DNA of 53,040 nucleotides, the filler included, from Jimgerdemannia flammicorona (lineage: Eukaryota), in the NCBI GenBank assembly GCA_003990765.1. It is 2 parts of 2 records of this genome, joined end to end, with 100 filler letters (N's around TTAATTAATTAA, not from the genome) between each part and the next. Parts side by side here need not be neighbours in the genome. Positions count along the whole stretch, not along the records: positions 26,591 to 53,040 come from RBNJ01000725.1; 1 more part is not named here. The stretch is one strand, 5' to 3'. The position numbers were made by a program, and so were the translations under genes. The notes under the pieces are model-generated. The model was not told the origin of the DNA. It did no database searches and saw only the letters and a program-made list of their open reading frames with translations. Below are positions 1-53,040 of this stretch, in pieces; positions within the stretch are counted from its first letter, which is position 1, and every line of letters starts with the position of its first letter.

Positions 1-19
1 AAAAAAAAAAAAAAGACAT

Positions 20-1265
20 ATTACTACAGACAATATCTAATTAGAAAATTTCTGAGATTAGTTAAGAGTGAGATCTAATATAATATAGATTTACTTAAGA
101 GTAGTTTGTGAATTATTAAATAGATTTATTCACTATTCATAATATTACCTTTAGCTAATATTAGGAGTAGTATATAAAGAAATATTAGTATAGAATTGTT
201 CATACTTAGGTTATCTGTATTCTTGAATATAGATTGAGATTTGAGAGAGAGAAAGGCTAAATATAAGTTTAGTACTTTAGTATAAATGAGTTAGAATATA
301 GTCATATAATACTAACTTAACTATACTAATGACTGTTAAGCTATTTATAGATTTATACACTGTCTGGATATTTATTAATAAGATTACTATCTCTGATAAA
401 GTAGTTATCCAGAAAGAGTAGTTTTTAGACTATATTTTCATACTCATTTATATAGTAATATGTTAGAATAAATTGATTATCTTATAGAATAGTATCATCT
501 TTCTCATATATATACTAAATATAATATTAGTAGATAGAGAAAGAGTATAACATCTTCATCAGATTTGCTATTAGTATACTTTTGATAGGTTATGGTACTA
601 TATATATATATTACAGAATTATAATATACTAAAGGTTGTTCTTTATTTTATTCATACTTAGAAAATAGAGTTATTAGTTTTATCTTGAGAGTTGTCTAGA
701 GATATAGGTTGTATTTTTCTGTTTTTTTATTATAGTTGAAGTAATCAAATATGAAGACAGATTAGTACTCATGCTAGTGGTCATTATTCCAATAAGTCTC
801 ATAAGTAGTTATAAACCATTATAAGTTAAGAATTTTTATATAAGTTATAATCAACTTATTAATAAATTCTGTACTATAGTAAGAGATAAATTCTTCTGAA
901 AATCTATATCTGAGTATAAGATTATAGAAGAGACTAATTATAGTTAAGGCATTAGTGATTTCTATTGAGAATACTTGAGATCATTTGGTCAGATGTTTCA
1001 TAAATACTAAGATATATTTATTTCTTCTTAGTATAACTGATAGAGATTTAATAATATCTACTCTCTATCTTTAGAAGATATAAATAGGTAGTATAATCAG
1101 TTGTAGTAATACTTGATGATTTTTTTTTTCTTAATACTTTTGGTAGATATTACATTTCTTAAATATATCTCTATATAAATTGTATTCTGAGATAGGACTA
1201 GTATTAATATATTTTTTGTAGCTTTTTTTTTTATTTATATTTATCTATCATTAGTAAGTCTTCTG
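20..1265 (-). mobile_element. Decayed Ty3/Gypsy LTR-retrotransposon integrase region
   Basis: Minus-strand manual translation of ~1200->840 gives 'KKCNIYQK' (HHCC CxxC remnant), 'LQLIILPIYIF*R*RVDIIKSLSVILRRNKYILVFMKHLTK' and 'LILRYRFSEEFISYYSTEFINK'. These match the Gypsy integrase core (vDi.gPLp...GNkYiLV.vD.fTK; RfG.P..iisD.G.eF.n). Very AT-rich, CpG-free, many stops. Boundaries approximate. Confidence 0.75.
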
Positions 1266-1289
1266 ATATTTTAATTAGATAAGATATTC

Positions 1290-3297
1290 TATAGGAGAAA
1301 GGGGACCTAATGAGCTACAGGATGTGCTGGAGGAGGACTAAGATAAGTCAGTAAGGATAAATACTAAGAGAAGTCAGAGAGTTGGAGAGCAGGAGATAGC
1401 ACTTGATGTTAATGAGGCCATTAGAGAGGAGAGATAGCTGTGGAAGGTGCTGATGAATATTATAGCAGATGAGTTAGAGCAAGATTGATTTTTATATAAT
1501 TAGTAAGAGGTACTAGAGTGAGGTCCTATAAGGTGAAGAAGTGGTGTGGAAGCTTCAAGATAAGCTAATAGTAGGCTAGGGGTATAAGATAGATGATAAT
1601 AGAGAGGCAGTACTTCTGATAAGTGTGAATGAATATATATTATATCTGTGGGGCCTTAGGAAGAAGGTGGCAAAGTAGCAGATAGTGTGTAAGAAGTATC
1701 AGTCTATTATAGAGGCAGTGGATGATGAGGACTGTTGGAAGATCTTGGAAGCATTGAATACTCAACAGGGAGAGACAGATGAGCTTGAGATAGAGAGAAA
1801 TTTGGATATTACTAGTAATGTAATGAGTATGAAATTATAGAGTAGATGTTTATTTTCCAAATATTATTCAATATGAATAGTATAACTAGAATCTTCTCTA
1901 TAAATATCAATGGACTATAGGGTGAGGTGAGGTATCAGAATATTTTCAGCAGGTTAAAGAGACTGAATATAGATCTGTTCTTACTGTAGAATATAAGATA
2001 TAATGTAGACTTTGATATGCTAGACTAGATGAGAGAATGAGGGGAGACAGCTATATAGTAGGGTCAAGTGGGCATTCTGATTAGAAAGAGCAAGAGAGAT
2101 ATTGGAGATATTGAATATTAGGAGGACAGAGTGACATAGGGAGTGTGAAGGCAGCCAAGCTAGAGCCCCTTGACTGTTGGATTATATTATTGCTCAGCAG
2201 AGAGAGAGGAGTACTTGGAGTAGATAAGAGAATTATGAGATGTAGGTACAATAGTGACAGAGAGGATTGACTATCTGAGTAATAACTTTAATATAATATG
2301 AGATGAGCAGTTAGACAGGACTGATAGAGAGAGAGAGATAGTTGGTAGAAGTAGAGAGATGGAAGACTGAGAGGAGATTGAGAGGCTGAGCTCATTGATG
2401 GATACTAGATATCTTGGATAGAAAGATTGAAGAGTCTATACTCACTAAGTAATAGGGCTAAGTTCAAGGATTGACTGGATCTTAACTGCTGAGTGCTGGA
2501 GAGTAGATGTCTGGAGACAGTGTGGTGCCCATAATCAGATCACTGGGGTTTACTAGACTGCAGAAGATTTGGAGGAAGTAGGGAGGGATCTAGATATTAA
2601 TATCTGAATACTTCATTGCTGGGAGAACCCTCCTTGTAGAATACAGATAGTAGACATTAGCTTCAGAAACTTATACTGGATGGCACAGGAGATAGAGATT
2701 GGGGATCATTGGTGGTATTTGAAATTAGATGCCCAGTGGTTCTGAGAAGAGATAGGGAGGAGAAGGGGTGCTCAGAGGAGAAGTCATTTAAGGTGGGCTT
2801 CCCAGAGGTTGGAGAAGATATTAGAGAAGTGGGCAACATTACTGAATGATAGAGAGAAGGGGGATTGGAAGGTTTAGTAGATCTAGCTAGAGGTGGAGAA
2901 ACTGAAGAGACTGTTTAGGCAGAAGGAAGAATTGCAGGTCAAGAATATGGTAGCCCAGCTGAAGTGGTAGGGCTTGGAGGAGGGAGAGAGGCCTACAAAG
3001 TTTTTGTCAAGGCTGCTTTAGGTGAGGGGGGCAAGGCAGTAGTGGGAAGGAGTATTGGATGAGACAGGAGAGATGGTGGTCAGAACTCCAGGAATCTTGG
3101 ACCAGTTGAGGTCTTAATGGGGGTGATTGTAGAGTGAGGAGGAGGGGGGGGAGGATGTACTGGACATTGAACAGCATCTGGTAGATTGGTACCTGGACCC
3201 AGCAGAGGGCTTAGGTGAACTTGGAGTACCTGTCTGAGGGGAGGAGATCTGTAGGGTGTTGGTGATGATGAGTCTTGGGATAGCTCCAGGAGAGGAT
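1290..3297 (+). mobile_element. 5' half of a decayed L1/Tx1-like non-LTR retrotransposon (possible ORF1 remnant, APE endonuclease, pre-RT linker)
   Basis: From ATG 1873: MNSITRIFSININGL*, DLFLL*E, LSNNFN (GDFN), SRIDWIL, SDH, EEGERPTKF. Ends with EEICRVLVMMSLGIAPGED at 3297, cut inside the K.PG.DG motif. 5' boundary approximate. Confidence 0.85.
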
Positions 3298-10135: not shown

Positions 10136-10838
10136 ACCCTCAACCAACAGCAAACAGTTCGGGGTGGACAGGCCGATCAATCGTCTGGAGTAACCAATCA
10201 AAATCCCAATACAATCGGCACTCGAAGGCGTTAATTATATACCTCAAATAAGATGCGTACAAAAAGTTTAACTACGTAAGAGAAAAAAAGCTTAATAAAT
10301 GAAAGAAATAAAAATGAGAGTGTATTCTACAGAATGGGGTGGTGCGTTTTCGTTACACAAGGAGAATAAGAACGGACGTGCAATTCATAAGGCAAACAGT
10401 AGGTCTAAATTTAGTTCAGTTATGCACGTGTCCGAGGTACGGGAGCGTTAGGTGGGACAAGGCATTCGTGTGTGTGGGAGAAATTTGGTCCGGTTAGAGT
10501 TGAGTCAGATCGGTTCGAGTTGAATCATTGGACATCTGGTGTGCACAACGCAATCTCTCGTGTCCCTCGCAACTACATTGTATACATGTTTTGATTTATT
10601 TTGGGGAATATCGCAGCAAGTCGGAATATCGACATTGCGTGGCGAATGGTCAGTTCGGCATAAGCGAACCCGACAGGTAGAATACAGTAAACAGGGAGGT
10701 GGGAGGGTGCGAAAACGGGATGAAGTCGCTAGTTGCAGGATTGCAGCGAAGCGGAAGAGGAACAACGATGTGTTTGGCAAATTGTATTTAAAAGGGAAAA
10801 TGCAAGGTTGACCCGTTATACCTATTGCTATTCCTACT

Positions 10839-11452
10839 TGTCACAGATGTCTTAGATACCGGATGTCACGTGTCCGTTGGGATACCTATGCAGATTAAAT
10901 CCCCGTCTTACTACTCTGAGCCCAACCCTCCGTGAATAATAAATTGGATGAATATATGTTTGTGTATTGGGTGAGGAAAGTTCTGTCTCGAATGCATTGC
11001 ATTGGTCAGTTCGAAGTACCCAGCCCAAAGAAATTAGATAAGCTTACCTCATTAAGAACAAATCCAGAAATCACATGCAAGATTATAAAGCGAAGTCAGA
11101 TTACAAAGCTGAGTCAACTCAAAGTCACAGAACATAAGACTCACAAAAATGGAATCTTACCAATCAAGATCAAAGATATATATATCAGATACACAGTTTA
11201 TCAAAATAGAGAACTTCAAACAACAACTATAAATTCTCAAACATATATCTAATTCTGACCACTAAAGTTTACAACTACATCTGTACTAATATTTAAAATA
11301 TCATTATCAATCATACTACAGCACTTCTATCTCTAATGAATACCTATAGTCTAGCATCTCTCTACTTTGTAAAAGTCTGATAGAATGCTCTAAATATACT
11401 TAGTAAAGTTTACTGAATCAGACAAATCTCAAACTACTATTTAATCAGCTAT
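10839..11452 (+). mobile_element. Possible LTR/PBS and RNase H remnant of an LTR retrotransposon
   Basis: TGTCAC start at 10839, CA followed by TTGGTCAG (PBS-like) at ~11001-11009, and weak 'IIINHTTALLSLMN…NALNILSK' similarity to the Gypsy RNase H (iTDH.AL; N..ADALSR) at ~11297-11410. CpG-depleted. Confidence 0.3.
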
Positions 11453-14400
11453 TTTTTTTTTTTTTTTTTTTTTTTTAATAGAATTAAGTAGTGTTCTCAA
11501 ATAAATTGAATCAAATCAAATTTAACCCAAACTTGATTCAATTTGATTGAATCAAAGGTCTAATTCAATTCAATTTAAATCAAATCAAAGGTCTAATTTA
11601 ATTTGAGATTTAATTTAAATTCTATTTTTTAAAATATAATAACTTAATAAAAACATATCTATATTTAAAGATATTTAGTTTGTTAAATTTAAGTATATTT
11701 CTATTAAGTTATTATATTTTTAAAAATAAGATTCAAATCAGACCCTCAATTCAATTCAAATTTAATTTGATTTGAACTTAATTCAAATTGATTTGATTTA
11801 TTTAAGAATACTAAAATTAAGTTCTTATAGATATTTATTAGAAGAGTACCTAAACTATATAGACCAAAACTCTCTCCCATCTTTCTCTTAAGCACTATCT
11901 CTCTATTGTTCTTAGGCTATATAGAGAACCCACAGTCTCACCATTCTAGCTATATAAGTGTAGTATTTTATACTTCTATTCCAATAATATATAGACTGAA
12001 CTAGTCTGTTTACTAAGACTGAATCATCAGATCAATACCATGAGAACATATCTATATATTAGATCTAATGATACTAAGACTGAATAATATAACCTCTTTG
12101 ACCTCAAATAAAAGTCAGAGATAAAAGAAAAATCCTTCAACCAATCAATAAGAAGTAGAATAGATTCAAGATAGGTGAGTAAAAGACTTATATGTGAGAT
12201 CTCTACAAAAGAACTTATATATAAGCTAAGATCTGAAAAGATCTCACTTCTACTCTCCAAGCCTATAGGCTTCAATTATATTATCATATTAACTCCTAGT
12301 TCTAGTCAGATACTATCAAATAAGAAAGAACCTACTCTTTAAGCCTATAGGCCTCTTTTTTTTTTATTTTTTTATATAGTCACTTGGACTTCTACTTTAT
12401 TATCCTCTAATCTATATTATACTAATACAAATATATAATATACTCCTCACTCAATCCTACAAAGAGTCTCCTCTTCTCTCCCATTTCTTTCTCTCCATCT
12501 TTTTGGAAATTTACTATCTCCTCTATAACTCTAATCCTCTTTCTAATCTATCTACAAATCTTCTCTATAAGTCTCTTATAGAGCTCTTCTCCAGATCTCT
12601 ACCCTCTCTATCAATTATTCAAAAGGTCTAATAATAACTATTTCTATCTCACAACTTACACTCCAAGTGCCAACTACTGACTATCCTCAAATATATATAG
12701 CTAATATTCAATAAGTTCAACCCAAATAGCCAGAACCCACCTAATAGTTAACTACTTATCTCCAATCTCTTCCACCAATATCCTCTGAAGATCACTCCAC
12801 CTTCTACCCACTATTTGCTCAGATAGATGTACTTCTATCTAATCCTTGATAGTCTTTTAAAAGTCTCTCATAACCTTGTACTCTCTCAGCCAATACTCAG
12901 GTATCTGTACTACTCTACTCTCTTACTCAATATTAAGGTACTCCTCATACTCCAGAGTACCCCCTTTTGTCAAATATCCTGATCTATAGTTCAATATCAC
13001 ATTGTACTATAAGAACCTCTACTATACTACCCAGAACTTAGGGGAAATCTACCTTACCACCTACTTGCTCTAAGACTAAATACTATTCCAGTCCCACTCT
13101 TTGCCAATTCCTACCCCTTGCTAGGTCTCCAGTCACAAATCTCTTCTATACTCTTGAAGATATTCTATACTATTCTCCAAACTAAAATCATCCACTGGTA
13201 TGCTCTCTAATAAAAGATAGTCCCATCTCTATATCTAGAGTCCCCAGTCCTTCTCTTCTCATCACTCTACTACTAAAGACTAATTTATTGAGCACCATCA
13301 ACTACTTCTCACTAGAATTTCCTATAGTGCATCTTCTAGCTCTTCTCTAGTACTATTTGAGAGAACAAGTTACCAGATGTACTATAGAGAGAGAATCATA
13401 CTTCCCACACTCTCTGTATAAGGGATACTCACTCTTGACCCCTCAACTTGCTAGCTTACTTCAGCCACCATACTCTCAAGCAGTATAGATACTTAGTAAA
13501 GTCCACTAGACTCAGCCCTATCTTGTCTACTGATAATGTCATTATCTTCCATCCAATCTGACTCTGCTGCTCTATCAAAATCTATGACCTGACTATCTTC
13601 AATAGTCTCTTAACCACCCATACTAAGAAGTTCAAGTGATATCCCAGATATCATAACTTAGACAGCTAATATATATTCAACATCATCACTCTTCTAGCCA
13701 GAGAGATATATTGGCCACCTCACCTCAGAAGAGTACTGCTCTACTCAATCAGCTACTGCTCTCACTATTTCTGAGATAATAGAGAACTATATACTGAGAA
13801 GTAGATCCCCAGATATCAGACCACCTCTTCTGCCAGAACAACTGTTCCAATCACATTCTCTCCTACTATTCCTCTACCTAATACCAAAGTCTTGCACTTA
13901 TATCAGTTAAGCTTAGTACCTAAGTATCTCTCATACTATTTTACTACACTCTTCAGTACTGTCACATCCTCCACAGAGCCCAGCCTAACTACTATATCAT
14001 CAGCAAAGACCCCCACCTTTCAGTTTATTCTCAGAATATTCAATCCCTCCACTTTGTACCTAATCCTGTCTAACAAAGGCTCTAGAGAGAGGGTATAAAG
14101 GATTGGTGACAGTAGGTCTCTCTGCAGCACTCCTCTGTCTAGAGGAAAAGACTCTCCCCTATAACTATTCATCATAATAGCCACCTGACTCCCCTCCAAC
14201 AGACTGATCAAAGCTTGCTTGAATCCTTGGAAAATCTCTATATACTTCAGCACCCCCTCCAGTCACACTTACTGGACCTTGTCATAGGCCTTCTCCTGGT
14301 CTAGAAATACTAGCTGACCATTGACCCTAGTAGCATGGGCTTCTTCAATAACACTGTGGACCCATGCTGTTCTATCTCTTATTAAATAACTCCTGACAAA

Positions 14401-18128: not shown

Positions 18129-18660
18129 TGTCAGCAGCAGCAGTATGCGTCGCGGGAGTTAGAATAGTATATCAACAAGTAATGTGAGTGGACCAACGAC
18201 TGCCTGAGCAACCGCCGATACAAAAGCCACATCAAGTGTGGGCAACGGAGGACCCAAGGTTCGACCGCGCAGTAGACAATTACTAGGAAACAGATAAAGG
18301 CTGAGGATGTGGAGATACTAGTTAACGACGGGGGAAAAAGGGTGACGACCGTAAGACTACACCTCTCGTTCGAGGGCCATCAAGACGGCACAGGTCCCAC
18401 CGACTTAGAGGGTTCAATGGGCCTGGAGGCATCAACCATCCACCTGACCAACAACTTGTCCCCCGTGCCCCGTGGAGCAAGGGGTAAGGCAAATCGCTTC
18501 ACCGGTCGTGGGGGCGATAGGAACGCCGTGCATCAAACCTCGGATCTGCCCCCCTGGAGCCGTAGCTTTGCCGTAGCTTGCCGTAGCTTGCCGTAGCTTG
18601 CCGTAGCTTTGCCCACCCCTCTTTCTCTCTCCCTCGCCGTGGGAGTCTAGATGCACGACA
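18129..18660. mobile_element. Possible solo LTR
   Basis: Bounded by TGTC…GACA, non-coding, and contains an internal tandem repeat. No convincing TSD. Confidence 0.25.
18559..18610 (+). repeat. 10-bp tandem repeat (GCCGTAGCTT) x5
   Basis: Read directly from the sequence. Confidence 0.95.
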
Positions 18661-18879
18661 GACCGCGCGCACATGCTTCCACCAAGTGGTAGTGGGACGC
18701 GTAGCCTGGGAAATAAAATGGGGGGCGTAGGAGTGGAAAGGAATCGTAAAAGCGCTATTGCTTGTCGCGATTTTTTTTTTTTTTGTTGTTGGTGGCGGAA
18801 TTTGCTGACGTCGTCGGCTCTGTCGTCAGTGTTTCAGATGGACTAAGCCATAGACAGCAACATAGTGTGATGCATGCTC

Positions 18880-19292
18880 TAATAATAGCTATTAACCATA
18901 TCTATTAAAATGAAATAAATTCTATAAGCAACAAATTATATTTTATAAAATAGGGCAAGTTATATAATTTAATTATAATAATATAATTTTAGTTAGCATA
19001 TGATATAATATCTAAATTATTTTAAGATAATATATTATATCTTAAAAACAGATATGTTTTCATTTATATTAAATAATCATTGCATTATATAATTATAATA
19101 TATATAACTAATATATATTTAAAGTTTAGTAATTTATTTTTAATTAAAATAATAATTATTATTTTAAATATATTATATTACTACAAATTATATTAGAATA
19201 TATATTACAGCTAGTTATTCCTTATAGGTATAAATAATAATTATAATATAATATTATAATGTAATTTATAAATCCTGATATTGTATATTAAT
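18880..19292. repeat. Extremely AT-rich decayed repeat or low-complexity block
   Basis: Nearly all A/T with no CpG. Followed by AAGCCGCACAAGCCG-type short repeats at 19320-19402. Confidence 0.6.
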
Positions 19293-19530
19293 AATGGGCA
19301 AGGCATATAACATACAAGTCAAAGGCCGCACAAGCCGCAAGCCAAAAGCTGCACATTCCGGACAAGGTATATACAAGCCAAAAGCCGCACAAGCCGAAAG
19401 CCGTATATATAAATACAATTATTGCCCACAAGACCCAAAAACAAAAAAGAGAAATAGTGTTTTTTTAAAAAAAAAAAAAATTGACATTGTACAATTGTGC
19501 AAGGATGAATAATGTTAAGCTGGAAGTATG

Positions 19531-20960
19531 CTATATTGGAAATATACCGCAAGCCCATTTTACATTATGTCTTGGGCGCTCCAAGAATATGTTGAATGCA
19601 TCATCAGTTCGTTTTTTCTCTGGAAATAATACTTTGAAATCAAAGTGCACTTCTTGATAGTAGTGTACCATTGCCTCCTCGCCCTGTTTCACGAAGAGCA
19701 AATAAAAGAGATCTTCTAAACCTATATTCAGTGTAATGCAACTCCATCGAAGCCCAGTTTCCAATCCAACCAATCAGTCTTCAACGCCTTCCAATACTTG
19801 GCAACCAACTTCGCCGTTAGAGGTATGAGCCTGCTGGTCAAAACCAGGGGCTTGATTTCTCTGAGCGCTGCGAGCTCCATGCGAGCACCGTTGAGGAGGA
19901 TAACAGTGTGCTTTAGGCCTGCAGGGACGTCGATGGTGATGTCGTTGATGAACTCAATGAGGCCTCCGAAGGACGTTTTGAAGTAGGCTTTGGATCCAGA
20001 CTTCTCGTCGGCCTGTAACACACCTTAGCCACCACCTTAACCTAATTCTCTTTTTGTCGATTGTTGCGTTCTGGATATCTGCGATTGTCTGGCTCAAATG
20101 GATGAGGCAGTGGGAGACATGGGAACGGCCTTCTCATCCTTCTTAACCTCGGCAGATTTTGTGAATGGCTTTACAGCCTGCAAGTTTCTTATGACAGAAC
20201 TGGTAGCAGGGCCCTGAGTTCTTGGGGCGATTTATCTTGGCGAATTAGGCGTGAGCTGGTCAAAGCCTGTGATTCCAAATGGTCAAGAGAAGTTGAGGTT
20301 AATATTTGTGGGATTTAGTTGAATCCAATACGATAAATTCGTCCAATAGCGTATTAGAAGGTGACTTACATCATCGCGGACCACCTGAATTATCTTTGGG
20401 GCGTTATTGTTCCTCCGGGCATCCATGGAATGCTTCGCAAATCAATCACATCCTGATTTACGAAAAAGAATTCCCGTGAGTCATGAGTGAATAAGTACTT
20501 ACCGCACAAGCAAAACCTTTACCCACAACCTACCTGAATTAAGGATTTAGACGGCAATTAGGGTTCCTGAGAAAATCACCCATATCATCGAAATACATGT
20601 AGATCAAACCCTTGGTCCAGATCCTTACCAATGGTGGTCATCAACACCCATAATTATTCTTTCTTTTCCTCATCTGTATCAGCAACGCAGTTTCTTGATA
20701 CGCTCATGCATGATACATTTAGTCGATATCTGTGGCTTGAATAGTTCGCCGAAGAATTTGGTGGATCTCATCCAGCGCCGCTAGGCCTCGACGGCGATGT
20801 AGTACTTCTCGACGAATAGGGGCTAAACGGCGGCGGCGACGGTACCATCCTCACTCTTGTCGACCTTGGGGAGATCGCCCTTCCATTCCCCCTCGAAGTC
20901 CTCACGATAGTGATGGAGTGGATACTTACCCGCTGGTTATGACGCTTCCCGAAGAGTCGT
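19531..20960 (-). pseudogene. EIF4G: eIF4G pseudogene fragment (MIF4G and MA3 domains), intron-retaining
   Basis: KYPLHHYREDFEGEWK; YYIAVEA*RRWMRSTKFFGELFKPQISTKCIMHE; LMTTIGKDLD; IQ|intron|DVIDLRSIPW…APKII; MA3-like FKTSFGGLIEFINDITIDVP. Stops and frameshifts present. Confidence 0.85.
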
Positions 20961-36681: not shown

Positions 36682-39550
36682 TTAATTCAAGCGCGCCCAG
36701 CCCTGCTTGTTCGCTTTCCCGGTCAACGGTTGGTCGTCCTCGTAACTCCATCCCTCTTGATCCGGCTCGCTCAGCCCTCGCACCTGCTCCCATAGCTTCT
36801 TGTGCCGCTGCGTGGCCACGCCGTCCTGCACGGGCTCGTCAGGCCCGTCCATGTCCTGATCGAAGCGGTAAGGCGTCGCAGTTTTGTTAGCGCCGGCAGG
36901 TTCGGCACCGCCCTTCATGGTATTAGGGCGTGGGGAGTAGACGAATAGCGGGTAGTTGTTGTTGGTGGCCGAGGCGCCGGCACCACCTGTTGGAGGGAAC
37001 GCACCCAGTTCGTGCGATGCCGATCCGGGGACCCAGTAAGGGACTGGAGTGCGGGAGCGTTTCCGACGGCGGTAGATGACGTAAGCCGGGATGCCCGCGA
37101 GAGCTAAGAGGGCAAAGAGGCCGAACAGGCTGGAACCGCCGCCGTTGCTAGAAGCGGATTGCGGCGTCGGCGTCGACGTCGACGTTTGCGTGGAGCCAAC
37201 TGAGGCGGTGGTGTTGGGGGTCAGCGTCTGGGAAGAGAAGTCGAAAGAACAATTGGCCGTGGCGGCGCTCCAGCCGGCGGTGAGGTCGGCCGGAGGAGTG
37301 TAGCTGTCCAGCCAAACCCAGTTGACCAGATCAACGATACCGGCGTCATTGAGATATGTCCGGTTGGCTCCATAGCCTGTTTGACGTAAATATACATATC
37401 AGTTTGAGACGTTCTTGGTGACCCTTTCCAGCATTAATCGTGTGCATCAGCCATTCATACTCAAAGCGTTGTCTACTATTCGTCATCTTGTCTCAAAACC
37501 CAATGGTCCACACCATCCAATACAGAACAAAGCACGTCGGAAACTAATCCTCACCATTTATAATCAGCATCAAATTACCAAGTCTGATGGCGGCGTGACC
37601 CCCACGCGGAGCTATTTCGGTCCCGTTCACCTGCTGGTAACGCCACTTCATCGCACACGTATTCAGAACGTACATGGAACCCGTAACTATGAAATCATTG
37701 GTGGTCAATATACCTCCGTAAAGGGCGACGGAAAAGCCATCAGGCGCTGTGGTAGTAGGGACGCAAGTCTTGTTAGAGAATTCGGGACAATGCGGGACAC
37801 TACAATTTCCAATGGGGAACGACAGGGATGCAATACGAACCAGCGACGGCGGAGTGGCTATATGGGTTTCACAAAGAATAACAGATGGGCCACTTTAGTT
37901 CAACCTCCTTAGAGTACGGTATAGTATTCAACTAAGGAAAAATCGAAATTGATTCTTACGAGGTGCGTGAGGCTGGAATATCACCTGTCGTCGGTGACAA
38001 TTCCCAGAGAAGCAGAACAGTATCAAAAACTGAGAATACGTGGAAAAAAAAAAAAAAAAAAAAAACGTTCGGCTGTGCTCCAACCCTCTGATAATAGCCC
38101 ACACCCCTCTAGCTTACTTACCAAGAACATTTTCGAAACCAGCAACAAGTAAGCTCCAGCTTTTCGAGACGGCATCTTGAATACAGTTAATACCGCCCAT
38201 GATAAAGAGTTTGTCCCCGCTGTAGATTCGACGGGAATATCGAATGTCGACAGTGAAATAAAGAGGATCGATGCATGCGGTCGGTAAAAGGTATCAGCGG
38301 GTTTCGAGATATTCTCAATTCCTATCGGTTGTGGGTGTCCATCACAGCCGGGAATGCCAAGAAATCCCTCTCTCCTTGCCCTCCTTCCTCTCTTTCATAC
38401 AGCGTGTGTCATAAAATCCAAAGTATTGAGAACCTACACAGCGGTCATGGTATGCTGATAACGGCCCGGCGGCTTACCCCCCGATTGCAAGACCGGAGTA
38501 TCATAAAAGTTTGTAGCCGTGAAGAGACGATAGAAATCGTTGAACTAGCATCGTTAAAAAAAAAATAAAAATAAAAAAGACGAAGGATAAGAATCGGAGA
38601 TAAATGGTGTAGATCGCGTTAATAACATCGCTACACCACCGCCAATACAATATGGAAAGCCCCACACACACAGAGAGTGAAAGTTCACAACGCGATGCCA
38701 ACGTTCCTGGAGAACTGGAGCGCGCTACTCACATAAGTCCAAGTATTATTGTTACTGGTATCGGTGCCCTCGCCACCAAAGAACCAGACCTCACCGTCCG
38801 CGCCCGGCTCCGCGGCATGAAGCTTCCTGGGGGCCGGTCGGCTTCCCCATATGATAGGCAAACTCCAAGATTGTGTTGTGGCATTGAACATGACCAAATT
38901 GAACGTGTCGTTGAGGTTGCCGTTGTTACCAGCGCCGGCGAAGAGAGAGGTACCATCAGAGGTGGAAAAGGCCACACCTGATTGTGATACAGAAGGAGGC
39001 AGGGGAAGCATGAGCGACAAGCTCGAGAGTTATTTTCGAAGCCGACCTAAGACCCGCCGCACAGAGTCGTGTTAATGTACCTTCGTTGTATCCGTTAAGG
39101 ATGGTTGTGCTGTTGGCGATGGCGCTCAGATCCGTCCATGGAATGCTGGAGAGATTCCAGGGTTGAGATATATCGACAGACCAGAACTGGAAAGAAATCT
39201 AAACGGGAAACCAAAATGAACAGACAGAGACCGAATCAGTCACAGGGTGTTTGACCATTAATGAAGATAAATATCAATAAGACATACGATGCTGCCTGCA
39301 ACGGAATATAGTTTGTTTTGGAGGCGCACTACGCTATTGAGAACAAGAACGAGACGTGTGTGCAAAAGTAAGTAAACGTCAGTGTCATTTCCACCGCAAG
39401 AGAAATGCCTGGCACCCAAAGCAATTGTATGTTGTCTGGAGCTCACTTGAATTCAGTGACGTTGGTTGGTCCAGCGGTGGCTCTGGATGTCATCAGAGAC
39501 AACATGGACAGAGCTGCCAGGGCAACACAGACCGAGACTTTCGGGCTCAT
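36682..39550 (-). CDS. Kelch/beta-propeller single-pass membrane protein, multi-exon
   Basis: Signal peptide MSPKVSVCVALAALS…; kelch motifs (FNATTQSW, PAPRKLHAA, VWFFGG, LFIMGG); Ser/Thr stalk, TM helix (~37085-37135) and cytoplasmic tail ending at 36682. Confidence 0.85.
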
Positions 39551-39880
39551 GGCGGTCAAAGTACTGTATGCTAAGTGTTACAGTGAAGAGAAGAGTGTCC
39601 TGTTTCTTGTCAAGAGGGTATTAAAGTCTTGATAAACATCTCGCCATTTCCGAGCAGTGTTGCACGGCTTGCCCAATTGGCTGAGCTTCCATATGTCCTA
39701 AACAGGGAGATACGTTTAATCGACCACAAATTGCCTAATTGCGAACCTTGTCAAGGAATCGAGGCATGCTCATTTTAGAGGAATTCTGAAGCATGAATCG
39801 ATCACAAAAATCCCACGCTAAATTCGCTGCCATAGCATTTCGGCATAAGTCGGCCGATCGATCGAAGAGGATAATCGAAA

Positions 39881-39913
<33 letters not shown>

Positions 39914-40214
39914 AGAAAAAAAAGACTAAATTGATTTGTGTTTGTTGTGACCCGGCCTTACTCCCGTCATAAGTAGGCTCGAGGTCCTGCGTATGGCTTG
40001 TACAACCTCGACATGTTAGCACTCAAAGTCCATTCAATCGCGGAACCTATTGTGGCCTTTTGTTTTTGATTGTACATTCTTCGAAAAATCTTGTACATAT
40101 TTCATGAACGGATTTGTTATATGGGGCGTGCTGCAACAAAATCAGACAAAGTGAACATTAATTTTGACGTCACTCAATGCATCAGCTCGAAGATTTTATT
40201 TTTGCCATCGCTTT

Positions 40215-41160
40215 GCTTGTAGCTTTTTAATAATGAGAAGGACACAACAAAAGTTCACAAGAAAAGAAGAGCAAAACAGCAACAAGCTTTGTCTAGATTT
40301 TTTCTTCTTATTTATTGATTGTGTCAAGCAATCTTTGCTTGTTCTTGCACTTCTTTGGCTTCTCATTTTGCTCAATATTTAGCAATAGCTTTGATAAAGT
40401 CTTCATTTTTGAGATCTGAAATAGTAGTTTTAAGATGATAGATATTAGGAGCTTTGATGTATCTGTTGACAGCATTATCAGGTAGAATCAAATATTTATC
40501 AGGGAAAAAATCTCTTGTTTTTTCTATTATAACTGGATTATCATCAATAAAAATATCAAAGTCTAGGTTCTCCTCTTTCAATCATATCAATGAGTGAGAT
40601 ATCAACCATTGCCATCTTTAGCAGGAGGATTAGTTTTGATAAACAATAAGTGGGTATTAGGAAAGTTCCTAAAAGTTTTCTGAAAAGGTTTTATTTTTCT
40701 ATAAAATTTAATCACTAGCTAAATCCTTATATTTTCCTTTCAGAGTGGTAGTTAAAATAATTAATTCCTCAATTAATTGACCATCTTGGAGTACTAATAA
40801 TAATTCCTTTTCAATAGAAAGAAAAGATGAATAATTATAAAAAGTAGATTGATCACTATAATATTATTTATCTTTTTAATTTTCTTCTTTCTTCTCAATC
40901 ATCAAGCTTGATAATTCTTTTCTTTTCATCAGAATTATCAGGATCAATGTAGGAAATTTTCATCAATTAGTATTTATTTTAGTATTAGGAGAAAATGAAT
41001 AATCTTTATTCTCATAGAGTATAATTTTTGCTTTCTCTTAAAATCTTTTAAAGTATTCTACAAAATTTATATTTTTCTTACTAACTTCTTAAAGAAGAAA
41101 TAGCTTGAAAGATATTAAACATTCACTCAGTTATAGATGACTTTGACTTTTCTCTCTTTG
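40215..41160 (-). pseudogene. Left-arm HAD-like (5'-nucleotidase-like) gene remnant of probable Mollicutes origin
   Basis: KVKVIYN[TGA] (motif-I-like, 41150-41127); STFYNYSSFLSIEKELL…LIEELIILT; [TGA]LKEENLDFDIFIDDNPVII (HAD motif IV-like D..IDD); hydrophobic C-terminal tail. Intronless, decayed. Confidence 0.6.
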
Positions 41161-41829
41161 AGTTTAACTTACTCTTTGATAAAAGTATAGAGAGAGTTAG
41201 TTTTATTTTGATTATTTATATTTTTACAACTTTAGTAATATAAATAATTTTATTTATTAATTATGTAGTTTTGGATAAGTAATATATATCTTTAAATTTA
41301 TCTCTGACAAATAGGCAAATATTATAATAAAGATATTCCTGATATTTAAATTCTAGCATTAGAAATAACAAGGTCTTGATTTTTTTTATACTCTTTAAAC
41401 TCTCAAACTTACTGGTTTTTAATAACTTGAATTCTTGAAAAGAACTGTTTGCAACTTCTTAGACTTTAACAATACCTAGATTTGCTCTAGTGAAAAAAAA
41501 AATATTGAAACTTTTATAAACTAGACAATTTTTTAAAATATATTTCCAGACTACTTATAATGTTATAATATTGAAAATCTTTATTACTATTATAATGCTA
41601 AGCTTTATTTAATCTAACAATGCTAGATCTTTTTACTATATTGCAGATATAGTCTATATAGTCTATCATAGTTTTATGATAAAGTCTTTTAATCAAGCTA
41701 AAACTACCATACATTTAAATTTAGTATAATCTAAAACTATAAAATTAGCTCAATAGTTTCATAATAACCAGTAATTATCAGATATAAATATATAAAACCA
41801 AAGAGTAGTATTGTTTTTATTTTATTTAT

Positions 41830-42660
41830 CTACATTATTATAAGTAACTTTTAAATACTTTTCTTCTTTATTTAATTGCTTAATACTATCAAATATTAGG
41901 CTAAGAGTACCATTCAGACCTGTTTTAAAAAGCTTATTCTCATCTAGTATATAATTAATTTACTCATATACTACTTTATTTTAGATTTCAAACAACTATA
42001 CTAAGATAATATATTTTACTGATTTATTAATTTGAATAAGATATATAGATATTTTGGACTTAGTTATAACTGTAATAGACAGTAGTATCAATGTCTTTAG
42101 AACTTGTTAGTATTAGCTTAAAAAGAGGATCTGGTTGAAGAATTAATAATTTTAACTGTTGCTATGAAAGAGAGGTATCCTAATAATAGTGGTAATCCTA
42201 AAAAAATTAAACCATTTTCCTCAATGTAAATTAAAATTCATCCTAACTGTCAAGAAAATGATGATTATTTTCCTCTAAGATGGGTATGAATACTCTGGAT
42301 TTCAATATTTTTATTGAAGATAATCCAGTTATAATAGAAAAAACAAGAGATTTTTTCCCTGATAAATGTTTGATTCTACCTGATTATGCTCCCAACAGAT
42401 GCATCAAAGCTCTGAATATTTATCTTCTTAAAACCACTGTTTCCGATCTCAAAGATGAAGACTTTGTCCAAGCTGCTACCAAATTTGAGCCAAGTAAGAA
42501 GCCAAAGAAGCCTAAAAACAAGCCAAGATTGCTCAGCACAATTAGCAAATAAGAAGACAAAATTGAGACAAAGCTGGTGTTGTTTATGGTCTGCTTTTTC
42601 TGGTGAACTTCTATTGTGTTCTTCTCATCATTAAAAAGTGATGAACAAATGGCAAATAAA
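41830..42660 (+). pseudogene. Right-arm paralog of the HAD-like gene
   Basis: EDLVEELIILTVAMKERYPNNSGNPKK; RWV[TGA]I…DFNIFIEDNPVIIEKTRDFFPDK…; hydrophobic tail at ~42575-42635. 5' boundary approximate. Confidence 0.6.
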
Positions 42661-42799
42661 ATCTTCGAACTGATGCATTGAGTGACGTCAAATGTTCACT
42701 GTCTGGTTTTATTGCAGCACGCCCCATATATAATTATATGCTTAATCTGATCACAAAGTACACAATTCACGTTGCACCCCCTCCCCAAAACCGCAACGT

Positions 42800-44240
42800 T
42801 CAGATGAACGCACTGAACCCAACTGACACTGTCACTATTCCAGCGACCGCCCACGACGCGGATCTGCCTATCCCGCTCGTCGCGCTCACCCTCGACGACG
42901 TCCCGCCGCTGTGCTGGCTCCCAACCGCCCCTGGCTGGTCCATGCCGGTCTTTGGATTCGCGACGGCCGCCTTGCACACGTACCCGTTCCCTTTGACAAC
43001 GCCGTTCTGCCAGCCGTCGATGGACGAGCACTTAAATTGGTTGCTCGTAGTCTGAACGTTCATACTGCCACGTACGTCATTGATGTTCGGAAGCTGGAAC
43101 GAGTCGAACGCACCCGTGACGTCGACGGTCCCATCCACCTCTTGGAGTTGCGGAAAGCCAATGATGGATCTCAAATTGGTGTTGTTGACGATGGAGAGGG
43201 CGCCGCCGAGAAAGGAGAGGGAGGGCATGGAGAGGTTGGCAAGTTGGTTATTAGCTATGATTGTCAGGGTGCCGCCGATGCGCGTCAGATTGCTGAAGGT
43301 GAGAGATTGGAAGGCATTCTGGTTGAACGAGAGGTCGCCCTCGACAGTGCTGAGGGATGGTAGGTTGAGCGCGCCGACGTTATCAAAGGTACCATTGTTT
43401 ATGGTAGTGAGGTTGGGCGCCTGGAATCAATGGTGTTGTCCGAAGGAAAGAGAAGTCAATGGAGGTTTGTCAGTATGATGCTCCCTTGTATATATGTTGT
43501 TGTCATATATACGTGAAATGAGATTCATCACTCGCCTTAACATCGACGGAATTCTGTCCATTCGCCGTCACATAAATCCCCTTCGTCAGCTCCAGCCTCG
43601 GTAAATCGACCAGCTTCAGATACAAATTGTTCGACACTATCACACTTGTCGCCCTCGTGAAACTCAGTCCGGCGGCTTTGGTGATGTACGTGTCAGCGAT
43701 ATGTAGGCTATTAACCTGGTTCAGCCCCTGCGGGAACACCAGCGCGTCAAGTGCCGGTGCTACCAAGACGGAGAAGGAGTCCACGTCCGTCAAGGCTGGC
43801 ATGTCAAGGGTGCTCATAACGGTGTGATTGGTTATCGATAGCTGGCCGGTGACACCCTGGAGGTTGGGGAAGGATACGCGCGCCGTGTTGAGATTGTTGG
43901 CGAGTAGCAGATTTCCGTTGATGACCTGGACGCCGGCGAGTGTGATGGTCGGGATGCCGAGGTTGGCGATGGTGATGGTCCCCGTGAAGGTCTGGCAGTT
44001 GGAGATGCTGTCCAGGTCAGATTGGGACTGAACAGGAAGCTCCCGGGAGCAGCCAGCGCCGGCTTGGCCTGTGGAGATATCGAGCATATGGGTCGCAATG
44101 GAAGAGAGTGTTAGCTCGTTATTACAGTCGTTTTGGTTGGAAATTTAGTTAACATGGGCGAAGCTTCCGAACCTACATATGCTCCCGAATGGCCTAGTTC
44201 CTAGGACAAGAAACAGCAGAACGATTCTCAACACAAGCAT
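42800..44240 (-). CDS. Ecm33/Pst1/Meu10-like GPI-anchored cell-wall protein (receptor L-domain repeats), 3 exons
   Basis: Signal exon MLVLRIVLLFLVLG… (ATG 44240) splices in phase to C-QAGAGC; SQSDLDSISNCQTFTGTITI; L-domain LRR-like repeats; C-terminal S/G omega region and hydrophobic GPI signal ending …VGFSAFI*. Confidence 0.88.
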
Positions 44241-49466: not shown

Positions 49467-52400
49467 TCAACTGCCTATAACACCGCGATATTCCTCCAAT
49501 ACCATTCCCACCACACCGCCAGGTTTCACGCGTTCCTCTTTAATCGGGCCGGTCTCCTCTTCCCATAGTCTCTTCCCCTCTCTTCCCCTCGACTCGGCCT
49601 TGTTTCCTAGAGACGACCCCCTGCTCCTGCCTTCCCTCTCGTTACTGTAATCGTCCGTCTTGTTATCATCCGTCTCCCTCCTCATTGTCCTCGACTCGGC
49701 CCTGTTTCCTAGAGACGACCCCCTGCTCCTGCCTTCCCTCTCGTTACTGTAATCGTCCGTCTTGTTATCGTCCGTCTCCCTCCTCATTGTCCTCGACTCG
49801 GCCCTGTTTCCTAGAGACGACCCCCTGCTCCTGCCTTCCCTCTCGTTACTGTAATCGTTCGTCTTGTTATCGTCCGTCTCCCTCCTCATTGTCCTCGACT
49901 CGGTCCTGTTTCCCAGAGACGACCCTCTGCCCCTGCCTTCTCTCTCGTTACTGTTATCGTCCATCTTGTTATCGTCCGTCTCCTTCCTCGTTGTACTTGA
50001 CAACCATCTGGGCGACTCGCGCCCATTTTCGTCGCCCATGTACCTCAGCCCGGACCGTGACGACAGGTTCGATGCCGACTGCGCCGCGCTGCTGGCACGA
50101 TAATTTCCTAGCGACCCGCGTGATTCTGACCGAGGTCTCGTCGACGTGTGCGGCGAGCTGGGGCGGTCGCGATCACCGTAATCGCGTTGCGGTTCCTGCA
50201 TCCCCTTCCCGGCGCTCAAGCTTCTCGCGTGCCTCTCGTGCGTCAATCCGATCGGACGATCATCCGACCCCCGTATTCCCTTCCCGGCACTCAAGCTCCT
50301 CGCGCTCCTCTCGTGCGTCAATCCGATCGGACGATCATCCTCCGATCCATCGTCGCCTGGGGCTCTCCTCTCCTCCCGCTCACGACTTTCTCTCTTCAAT
50401 CGCCTTCCCCTCCGAGCCTCCTCCGCCGCCGCCGCTGCGGCGCGCTCCGCCCACGGGTCATCCTCCCTCGGCAACCGATCTGCCCAGGGGTCTATCTCCT
50501 CGTCGTCGAAGAGGCTGCTCTTGCTGACGCTGCGGCTGTGTGACGTCCTTGACTCGGGATTCTTGCCTGTCCCAGGGATCGGGAATCCGTTAAGATCGAG
50601 CTGAGAGCCGATCCTATCCAGGGCGGGCGAAGATGATCCGGATACAGGCTTGCCGTGACTCCCGCGTATGCGGTCCATGGGAGATTCGGCTCCTTCCCTC
50701 TCGCGCGCGAATTCGTACTGCTTTTCGCGCGTGCGGTCGCGGACCTTGGCCGCCGGGGTAGCGAGGAAGTCGGCGGAGGGCGAGACCACAGGGACGTTTT
50801 CGTCGTCGTTGTCGTTGCCTCGCCGGCTAGACTGGCGGCTAGACTGGCGGCTGTCGCGAGGAGAGATGACGCGGTTTGGAGAGTCGGCGGATGCGCGACT
50901 GTTGGCGCCGCTGTTATTGTTGTTCGCACTGCCCTGACCGGCCTTGGCGAGCCACTCATCGCGTTCGCGTTCTGCCGGGGTGCGCAGGTCAGCCAGGCTG
51001 CGGCGGGCGGAGATAGAGAGGCGTTCCGTGTCGGCCATCATGCCAAGGGGAACGCCGTCAGAAACGGCGATAGGGACATTGTCATCCGAAGCGTTGTCGT
51101 CGAGGGTTTTGTTGGAGGAGTAAGTGCGTCGCGAAGGGGTTGATTTGGTGGCGGCGTAGGAAGAGGCGCTAAATTCCCTGGAGTACAGGTCAGATCTCGA
51201 AGGCAGTTTGCGCAATGGTGAGTTCACGCCATCGCTTTTCCGATAATCCAACGACTCGCGCTGCGATAAGAACCCGTCGGCTTCGTCTTGCCAGAAGAAT
51301 TTGCTTCGACCCGTGGGCGACGTGGGACTCTGATGTTCGACAGGGATGGTGGGCACGGGAGGAAGCCCACCGCGCGGAATGAACAGGTCCTCGACTGGCG
51401 AGCCTACCTGCTCGCCCCTTATCCGTTCACGGGAACGGGATCGTGCACGCTGCTCCATGAAATCGCGGTCCTCGCGCGTGAGCGATCGAGAGCGGCCGTC
51501 GGCAGTTAAGGAGTTTTTGCTAGACTGATGGCGCAGGCTGGCCCTGAGCTCGGGATCGGCTTCGCGTGACTGGCGCGCCGACCAGCGGCCTCTCTCTTCG
51601 TCCTCTCTGTCCCTTTCGCGCTCGGCCTCTCTGCTACGTCTGGACATAGCCGAGGGGAGTGGTGGCAAGTCCTTAGAATCGCCGAACGATTTACGACTCG
51701 CATCGTCGCGCAACGACTTGTTCGACTCCTTCTTTTGCAGGCTGTTCTTACTCTTGTTGAATTCCTCCATTCTCATCACAGGCGTCGAGTCCCTACCCTT
51801 ACCGGAATACGACCCGCGTACTCCCATGTCACCTTCCTCGTCTCTCATAATGTCCCTGTCCCTCGACTTTCTCGACGTGCCTGGAACAGGCCTACGATTC
51901 AGGAATCTTGACGGCTCTTCGTCATCACCCGAACCGTGCTGCAGCTCCACCACCACAGACGACATGGGAAGCGTGGACGGGCCCCCCCCCGATCCCAGGT
52001 CGGCGACGTGTCTAGGCAACTGCGGCACGTGCGATCTGCCACCGCTCCTTTCCAGCGACTTGCGGATCAATGAACGCTTCGACGATTTCCCTGAGTTCCC
52101 TCCCTTTCCAATATCCTCCAGTTCGGATGAGTCGTCACCATTCCCATGCCGGCCGGCTGTCTCAGCCGGCATGATCCCGCGCGGGGCACGTTCTGCCACC
52201 GTGGTCCTGCCGTTGCGGTTCCGCGTCTCGGGATCATGCCTGGGCATCATGCGCCGCAGAATAACGAACATGATAACTGCGATCACAATAACCACGGCCA
52301 CAAGGACAACGACGACGGCCCATGTCGGGAACTGCCCGAACCCAAGATCGATGGTGTCCGTGCTTGCGGGGTACATGGTCTTGGCCTGCGTCATCAGGCC

Positions 52401-53040
52401 ATTGCAATTGTCCGAGAGCGGACATTGGTCGCCGAACATAGCGAGGCTCGCGACATGTGGGGGAAGGCCCAGCAGCGCAGCGTGCGCCGTGTTGGCGGTA
52501 AAGATGGCAAAGAACTGCTGCCTGTACCACGATTCACAGTCGTACGTGTTGTTGGCGGACATGTTACTGTTCTGGTCTCCTTCCCAGGTACAGGTGAGGA
52601 CGTATGGTGACCATGGGCTGCCTTGCATCTTGTAGTTGTCGGGAAAAGCTATGGAAGTGCGGAAGTCGTAACCGTATTTTGCGGCGTCGGAATGGAACGC
52701 CGTAATATTCATTTGCCAGTTGTTTGGGGAGAATTGTTCATAGTTCAATTGATAGCAGCATGGTGAGACTGCATGGATGGTTGACGAATGCAGGGACGAT
52801 AGGCCGAATGTATAGGCGCGATGGTTTGAAGGAAATAAGAGAGGAATATATTACAATTGTGTCAATAATATCGGGTGTGTTTCGCTGCTGGGAGTGTTGG
52901 TTGCATAAGCTTGCTTCCCCCTCTGTTGTGTAAGTGAAAGCGGCAAACGTTTTCAGGGATCACGGACAAGAACAAAGATCCCGGAGGTGCATTGTATGAC
53001 GAAGAGGACACCGTGAATGAATCTCGGACCAGTTGGGGGG
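49467..53040 (-). CDS. Large single-pass membrane protein (Cys-containing ectodomain, TM, ~930-aa disordered R/S/E-rich cytoplasmic tail); 5' end outside the window or unresolved
   Basis: 1093-codon open exon 49467-52748 extending to a CAG acceptor at ~52770; TM WAVVVVLVAVVIVIAVIMFVIL followed by RR. Confidence 0.8.
49590..49990 (-). repeat. 102-bp (34-aa) coding tandem repeat, ~4 copies
   Basis: RRETDDNKTDDYSNEREGRSRGSSLGNRAESRTM repeated, with near-identical DNA units. Confidence 0.95.

Follow-up and report, generated by a model that had tools for sequence, protein, structure and literature searches.

A probable defective DUF7869 transposon with a passenger gene of a TGA=Trp family in nuclear DNA of Jimgerdemannia flammicorona

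What is the AT-rich block with two inverted, gene-bearing arms that lies at positions 40118-42730 of a 53,040-nucleotide (nt) stretch of Jimgerdemannia flammicorona DNA (the window; two parts of assembly GCA_003990765.1 joined end to end with filler), and how did it get there? The initial annotation offered either a non-autonomous DNA transposon built around bacterial cargo or an integrated endobacterial segment, mobile or invertible. Our analysis makes it probable that positions 40123-42725 are a defective cut-and-paste DNA transposon that had a DUF7869 transposase, that carries a passenger gene of a family read with TGA as tryptophan (TGA=Trp), and that is inserted in eukaryotic nuclear DNA.

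The block has the ends of a transposon. A BLASTN comparison of the element with the window aligned 40118-40556 with 42730-42305 as an inverted repeat of 441 columns at 83.9% identity (E ~1e-128), in agreement with the ~450 bp of diverged inverted similarity first noted, and revealed no further copy of the element in the window. A repeat search resolved the same inverted repeat as five collinear pieces of 77-97% identity, and a weaker inverted similarity continues inward from it to ~40772/42135. Besides the terminus and a short spacer, the left arm takes in the final ~120 codons of the cargo gene. The 19-nt tip is the same on both sides of the element, as had been stated, but four of its bases (ATAT) are most likely target duplication, judging from eight of eight relatives described below. 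Two exact sites for the 17-nt core of the tip were found in the window, plus one with three mismatches, where shuffled sequences led us to expect 0.06.

The same unit and the same end recur elsewhere. A soil metagenome contig of 1893 nt (L008) is collinear with window positions 40115-41966 at ~73% identity, as determined by BLASTN of the element against the fetched loci; its central 962 nt match the element with an E value of 2e-154, and an end-to-end alignment extends the collinearity to 41981. L008 contains, in order, an open reading frame (ORF) cut at its 5' side (ORF-U, 244 amino acids (aa)), an intact HAD-like gene of 346 codons with ten TGA, and 73 nt of spacer plus terminus. A terminus of ~42 nt is common to L008 and a second metagenome contig, L012, in which the 19-mer carries one and three mismatches, respectively, and the left terminal repeat of the element (~42 nt) is 86-90% identical to the L012 terminus. 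At the left end, at the right end, in L008, and in L012, homology stops right after ...GCCCCATAT, and the flanks all differ. The presence of one terminus in two unrelated contigs with different flanks supports a mobile element, as initially proposed, over a plain inverted duplication. The idea of an invertible segment found no support: the element has the ends of a transposon and contains no recombinase. A degenerate pattern of the terminus gave no match in genome contigs and none in viral contigs; the exact 19-mer had two matches among 596 billion bases of prokaryote genomes, where ~4 are expected by chance, and these were disregarded. The best-kept part of the arms (40163-40201/42654-42692; 39 nt, 97%), located between the stop of the cargo gene and the terminal repeat, holds a palindrome, TGACGTCA, that is conserved in L008 too. 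This stretch may be a putative subterminal transposase-binding site or a terminator site.

Although no transposase had been recognized in the block, a remnant of one occupies 41254-42098. In a tblastn search with a 589-aa relative (P0094), residues 338-584 matched positions 41995-41267 (E 1e-41) and residues 300-332 matched 42098-42000, both on the minus strand; thus, a transposase-like remnant fills the center of the element. This region is collinear with ORF-U of L008 at 73% nucleotide identity. ORF-U matches Pfam PF25273 (DUF7869) with an E value of 2e-16 (60.5 bits against a cutoff of 26), and P0094, P0104, P0117, and a Desulfobacterium protein reach 62-79 bits with the same model. The Pfam scan was of ORF-U and its relatives, and the DUF7869 membership of the window remnant is taken via its tblastn match to P0094. 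An alignment of 12 transposase sequences showed Asp-390 and Asp-432 to be invariant and Asp-311 to be present in at least 90% of the rows.

The longer relatives of ORF-U comprise 27 DUF7869 proteins (443-762 aa), most of which are annotated in assemblies of Glomeromycotina: Ambispora leptoticha (53-88% identity), Geosiphon pyriformis (56%), Gigaspora rosea (47%), and Rhizophagus irregularis and R. clarus (44-48%, on scaffolds of up to 2 Mb), together with a bivalve (32-33%). One Geosiphon gene model (P0092, on a 258-kb contig) fuses the ORF-U tail to a HAD-like gene, so the gene order of L008 recurs in Geosiphon. Bacterial genomes and metagenome-assembled genomes (MAGs) hold 45 loci of the transposase family, mostly full-length, with 27-41% identity on the best segment, and the search of viral contigs with the transposase alignment found nothing. 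A quick tree places the L008-type transposase with the Ambispora and Gigaspora rows, as sister to the Rhizophagus rows and separate from the bacterial insertion sequences. The transposase is silent on the code in which it is read, as the sole tryptophan codon of ORF-U is TGG. Among the loci of a "Stappiaceae" MAG with many "chromosomes" (L056-L064, L068, and L072), the DUF7869 matches stretch over ~2.2 kb rather than 1.7 kb, which suggests interrupted genes and perhaps eukaryotic host DNA binned as a bacterium.

The bacterial relatives allowed us to define how such elements end. A Desulfobacterium chromosome carries a 2.07-kb unit five times (L036-L039 and L062), with ends GGCGGG...CCCCC, repeats of ~40 nt, and target duplications ATAT (three copies), TTAT, and AGAT; a gammaproteobacterial MAG adds two copies and a further locus one, with ATAT, AAAT, and AAAT. 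Hence, 4-bp NNAT duplications flank 8/8 bacterial copies (ATAT four times, AAAT twice, TTAT and AGAT once each), and the multi-copy ends of the bacterial DUF7869 insertion sequences are GG(C/G)G...C(C/G)CC. By analogy with these copies, the element most likely comprises 40123-42725 with flanking ATAT, and the site before insertion would have read ...GGATTTGTT-ATAT-ATAATT.... The window copy alone is also compatible with a 2-bp duplication. Judged from sequence comparison, these data would give Pfam DUF7869 a function, that of a transposase with 4-bp duplications in bacteria and eukaryotes. The name "DUF7869" was not found in the papers searched; no other search was aimed at this element, and no description of it was seen.

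The arms carry two dead copies of one cargo gene, both with the motif that had been quoted for them. Each arm does hold the 3' part of the gene, as had been noted, but the left copy (copy A) is full length, extending to 41219, and only the right copy (copy B) is partial. Between 40848 and 40375, copy A keeps a single frame with six TAA/TAG and one TGA, and it is frameshifted upstream of this stretch and in its tail. Copy B covers the gene from approximately residue 125 to the end, with deletions and one frameshift relative to copy A, and has its ancestral-frame stop at 42657-42659. In the ancestral frame the copies end at 40196 (left) and 42659 (right), 66-73 nt inside the element ends; the tail of the 90-aa ORF seen in the right arm is a frameshifted reading of an ancestral membrane-anchor region. 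Because of the frameshifts, neither arm gene is intact under any genetic code. Alternative codes (tables 1, 4, 6, 10, 12, 14, 15, 16, and 25) gave short frames or opened all frames alike, as expected in AT-rich DNA, and tables 27 and 31 contain no stops at all.

Positions 40375-40848 were read through under table 27 and searched in 1.84 billion representative proteins, which yielded 79 relatives at E ≤ 1e-3, of which 31 had E ≤ 1e-10. One of these is a J. flammicorona protein (P0004) that is 89% identical to the left arm and 70% identical to the right-arm ORF; other named relatives are annotated in Entrophospora sp. SA101 and Geosiphon pyriformis. The full-length relatives have ~300 aa, with an N-terminal DWDE, a strand ending in Ser-Ser, a conserved lysine, and PDFDIFIDD, and frequently have a C-terminal transmembrane helix or membrane anchor. 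In the family alignment, Asp-201 and Asp-202 are invariant, Lys-152 is nearly so, and DWDE and IISS appear in the consensus, such that the family possesses HAD catalytic motifs I-IV (DxDx[TV], S/T, K, and DD). Copy A of the window has a destroyed motif I, and copy B lacks this motif altogether. A structural model of one relative (P0007; predicted local distance difference test score (pLDDT) 89.8, predicted template modeling score (pTM) 0.81) has HAD-superfamily phosphatases as its best structural matches, and Foldseek puts the same phosphatases first, with an E value of only ~2e-3.

No curated HAD sequence model matches, and membership in the superfamily thus rests on fold and motifs. Neither arm ORF matched Pfam, the window copy had no match up to E 10, ten cargo relatives gave no match to HAD-family Pfam models up to E 0.1, and NCBIfam had no relevant model. 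The cargo is 10-14% identical to the class B acid phosphatase AphA and the 5'(3')-deoxyribonucleotidases of the HAD superfamily, and it differs from them in the frequent C-terminal membrane anchor and in lacking a Pfam or NCBIfam match. With the 90-aa ORF, the ESM Atlas returned just sub-threshold leads (0.84-0.88) to HAD-type clusters, and the search of a phage collection found nothing. Together, the predicted Rossmann-like HAD fold and the motifs support the HAD-like label of the initial annotation and a predicted ~300-aa HAD-fold phosphatase with a C-terminal membrane anchor.

The genetic code of this family points to its home. A scan of prokaryote genome contigs with the cargo family alignment gave only two loci, both in the genome of the Mollicutes-related endobacterium (MRE) of Dentiscutata heterogama (DhMRE). 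The search of the whole DhMRE genome gave four matches at three places, and 120 other genomes sampled from its class gave one weak match (E 1e-4). A metagenome scan added 20 loci of 28-36% GC. All 19 related stretches that we compared (two in DhMRE and 17 from 16 of the 20 metagenome loci, with L011, L015, L016, and L022 excluded) contain in-frame TGA codons at tryptophan positions (2-8 each) and are free of TAA and TAG, and the cargo gene therefore evolved in a TGA=Trp genome; the bacterial cargo proposed at the outset is thereby borne out. Because of its in-frame TGA codons, the gene is untranslatable in a fungal nucleus. Both window copies retain a TGA just upstream of the FDIFIDD motif, and they have TAA/TAG stops and frameshifts as well, so that they are dead under any code; these lesions are later decay. 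One metagenome contig (L006:184-1843) carries two tandem diverged members with 6 and 8 in-frame TGA, and the family is one that expands by local duplication in TGA=Trp hosts. If the modeled fold is right, this would be a family of membrane-anchored HAD phosphatases known to date only from sequences of Mollicutes-related endobacteria or from similarly AT-rich ones with the TGA=Trp code.

From these observations a history of the window copy can be proposed. Working relatives would have a transposase that binds the terminal repeats of ~40 nt, excises the element, and pastes it into an NNAT (often ATAT) site, with the fill-in of a staggered cut producing the 4-bp duplication, as the family suggests. 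The lineage carries the phosphatase gene, whose family occurs in MRE of fungi, as a passenger beside its right end. The window copy would have inserted between genes of a eukaryote, 70 nt past one that is Ecm33-like. Its original left end and the first ~300 transposase codons are gone, replaced by an inverted duplicate of the right-hand ~625 nt. Either the lineage had native long terminal repeats, as some Sola elements do, and the window copy lost an internal piece, or the left end may have been rebuilt by template switching during repair. A three-way comparison, in which the arms share 113 states against L008, the right arm and L008 share 66, and the left arm and L008 share 51, shows a mosaic pattern along the length that is compatible with both. 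The window copy is unable to move by itself, in keeping with the non-autonomous element originally described, and host C-to-T hypermutation has since hit its interior.

How the element reached the nucleus can be read in two ways. In the first, the transposon and its passenger live in MRE genomes, and a copy jumped directly into the host nucleus by its own ends; this is a serious possibility, although we stop short of calling it probable. The passengers of L008 (346 codons, ten TGA) and L012 (157 codons, three TGA) are open only under TGA=Trp, each is the last gene before the same terminus, and each has only about 40-52% protein identity to the window copy, with about 45-52% for L012, which points to prolonged selection in a genome with the TGA=Trp code. 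The ends of the element in the window are exact, with matching ATAT on both sides. Furthermore, two published reports state that 1-8% of the non-orphan genes of MRE encode transposases (PMC4916391) and that Endogone harbors MRE (PMC5729711). Against a direct jump stand the placement of the L008-type transposase with rows from Glomeromycotina assemblies and its silence on the code.

In the second, a resident element of Glomeromycotina or Endogonales captured an MRE gene, and the window copy arose by nuclear transposition or fungus-to-fungus transfer; we regard this as a credible but tentative account. Other members of the transposase clade are annotated in assemblies of fungi, among them proteins on Rhizophagus scaffolds of 0.7-2 Mb, the Geosiphon fusion (P0092) lies on a 258-kb contig, and the close J. 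flammicorona relative P0004 suggests further nuclear copies. Sola elements are reported in Rhizophagus, although the same source gives no Sola1-3 for the Mucoromycotina sampled (PMC5751038). That DUF7869 was not found in the one complete MRE genome, DhMRE, fits the capture of an MRE gene by a fungal element and counts against a direct jump, but weakly, as the control genomes gave nothing either. On the other hand, a passenger that the nucleus cannot translate should decay, yet it is intact under TGA=Trp in L008 and L012 despite their divergence from the window copy.

A mixed history, in which a fungal transposon entered endobacteria, gained the phosphatase gene there, and returned to the nucleus, would fit both lines of evidence; gene transfer from fungus to endobacterium is reported in PMC5982333. 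We tentatively suggest that a transposon of fungal ancestry settled in MRE, took up the phosphatase gene, and can transpose straight into host nuclear DNA, which would make it a natural shuttle between symbiont and host. The role as a candidate vehicle for symbiont-to-host DNA transfer that the initial annotation envisaged thus remains a live reading, alongside that of a fungal element with a captured gene. If such a shuttle exists, the window holds a fossil of transposase-mediated insertion from bacterium to nucleus. The entry of DNA from intracellular bacteria into host nuclei is mostly inferred from scattered fragments without ends; here, exact ends, a target duplication, and a gene in the symbiont's code make the integration step testable and may show how symbiont DNA reaches the host nucleus. 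Should the element prove to be just a fungal transposon with old bacterial cargo, it would remain a clean, though ordinary, case of a captured endosymbiont gene.

The class assignment first proposed is very unlikely, namely a non-autonomous element of the Tc1/mariner/IS630 or Pack type that duplicates TA and lacks its own transposase. TA does adjoin TATGGGG... at both ends, and the window copy is non-autonomous and gene-carrying. Nevertheless, the remnant is a DUF7869 transposase, four full-length transposases scanned at E up to 0.01 matched no other Pfam family, and the relatives duplicate 4 bp in every copy, including AGAT, TTAT, and AAAT.

Composition and mutation pattern point to residence of the element in nuclear DNA. 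Its GC content is 26.4%, compared with ~48% for the surrounding eukaryotic DNA and 45-53% in the flanks. Its right end lies 70 nt from the stop of the minus-strand ORF 42800-43228, which is part of a gene with Receptor-L-domain matches, as in Ecm33, confirming the position given initially; another ORF of the window encodes a eukaryotic-type rhomboid protease, and the surroundings of the element are therefore eukaryotic. In the transposase part, 143 of the 194 differences are C/G in L008 and T/A in the window, and 21 are reverse transitions. L008 cytosines are changed to T most often in CpG (72%), followed by CpA (52%), CpC (40%), and CpT (31%). This bias is strong in the center, drops to a moderate level across the 5' part of copy A, and disappears in the final ~230 nt. 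The interior has an observed/expected ratio of CpG of 0.0; the arms have 0.31-0.37, L008 has 0.68-0.83, and the host flanks have about 1.05-1.1. Window blocks 1-3000 and 12001-14000 also have a ratio of 0.0 (11001-12000, 0.14), so the element has been treated like the host's own repeats, evidence that the host removes every CpG from certain repeats. Blocks 1-3000 and 11001-14000 (23-43% GC) have opposite GC skews of +0.24 to +0.49 and -0.26 to -0.47 and look like repeats hypermutated on one strand; BLASTN found no similarity between them, and six-frame Pfam scans of the AT-rich blocks 1-3002, 10401-14002, and 18501-20402 gave no match.

These data bear on the possibility that a co-assembled endobacterium contig was misjoined into fungal sequence. 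The foreign composition and the bacterial-code cargo would suit such an assembly chimera, and sporocarp-derived assemblies of such fungi can contain endobacteria, according to PMC10386755 and PMC5729711. However, the loss of CpG, the exact ends, and the dead genes argue against it: both junctions fall exactly at element termini with the same four bases outside each, the cargo and transposase genes carry stops and frameshifts, and the interior shows one-directional C-to-T change relative to L008 and lacks CpG like two other window blocks. We consider a chimera highly improbable. That a host gene was merely duplicated in place in inverted orientation, without mobility, and turned AT-rich by repeat-induced point mutation (RIP) is scarcely credible. 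Although the interior has RIP-like indices (TpA/ApT 1.09-1.23, substrate index 0.81-1.01) and all three stop codons occur in frame, the same unit and terminus recur next to different flanks in metagenome contigs, mutation is lightest in the duplicated part, the arms, and the gene belongs to a TGA=Trp family. Classical RIP of the arms was likewise rejected, the signature being confined to the center.

Several observations weigh against a defective DUF7869 transposon in nuclear DNA as the full explanation. The terminal ~230 nt of the arms (40118-40350 and 42500-42730) escape the hypermutation. ATAT follows all four termini of the lineage that we have seen, and the assignment of these bases to target rather than element is by analogy with bacterial relatives of ~30% protein identity. 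The terminal repeats resemble the ends of the bacterial elements no more than shuffled controls do: over 45 positions, 11 of the 16 comparisons gave 24-31 identities and the remaining five gave 10-14, and the best shuffled scores were 27-31. The cargo gene is named by no Pfam or NCBIfam model. Finally, the transposase model has a pLDDT of 63, with no Foldseek match at E ≤ 0.001.

The features of the element are collected in Table 1. In its vicinity, a long A-rich run (poly-A with interspersed G) lies at 39871-39925, ~200 nt left of the insertion site. No tRNA gene was found in 39500-43400, where the sole Rfam match was far under the gathering score. In public sequencing data, the single run found came from soil and shared 5% of words; it yielded a contig of 244 nt that matches host flank 42796-43039 exactly, together with short pieces of unrelated sequence, and nothing from the element or its junctions. 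Farther away, a 1093-aa ORF on the minus strand (49467-52748), which has no Pfam match, includes tandem repeats of ~102 nt (88-95% identity; 49587-50001) and ~75 nt (50200-50340).

Table 1. Coordinates of the element and its parts in the window
Feature	Position	Strand	Remarks
Left target-site duplication, ATAT (putative)	40119..40122	.	Same four bases after right end
Left terminal inverted repeat, starts GGGGCGTGCTGCAA	40123..40164	+	Pairs with 42684-42725
Long inverted repeat, left arm	40118..40556	.	Partner 42305-42730
Cargo copy A, full length, dead	40196..41219	-	Maps onto intact L008 gene 768-1808, 346 codons
DUF7869 transposase gene remnant (residues ~300-584 of 589)	41254..42098	-	tblastn with P0094; N-terminal half missing, frequent stops
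Cargo copy B, partial, inverted, dead	42100..42659 (inner boundary approximate)	+	Three-way alignment with copy A and L008
Right terminal inverted repeat, ends TTGCAGCACGCCCC	42684..42725	-	Pairs with left terminus; also in L008 and L012
Right target-site duplication, ATAT (putative)	42726..42729	.	Matches left ATAT

Among known systems, the element most resembles the Sola superfamily of DNA transposons, reportedly introduced by Bao and colleagues in 2009. PMC10741241 describes Sola transposases as DDD enzymes of bacteria and metazoans, with 4-bp duplications and terminal repeats of 11-1124 bp. The DUF7869 transposase has three conserved aspartate positions, its relatives make 4-bp duplications, and the family occurs in bacteria and eukaryotes; Sola is reported in Rhizophagus, and its published range of terminal repeats includes long ones. 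By these described traits alone, the element fits Sola and may be called Sola-like, but its lineage differs from Sola in carrying a bacterial-code passenger gene.

With the bacterial DUF7869 insertion sequences the element shares a homologous transposase, full length in those relatives, GG(C/G)G ends, and 4-bp duplications of the ATAT type. Those insertion sequences, as represented by the Desulfobacterium unit, differ in having one gene, no passenger, and repeats of ~40 nt, and their transposases form clades separate from the fungal-associated ones. Pack-type elements are gene-carrying, non-autonomous DNA transposons. The window copy is like them in being a defective element whose ends bracket captured coding sequence. 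Unlike theirs, its passenger is apparently a whole gene, kept over the deep divergence between L008 and L012 rather than picked up as a chance fragment, and it is written in a genetic code other than that of the host.

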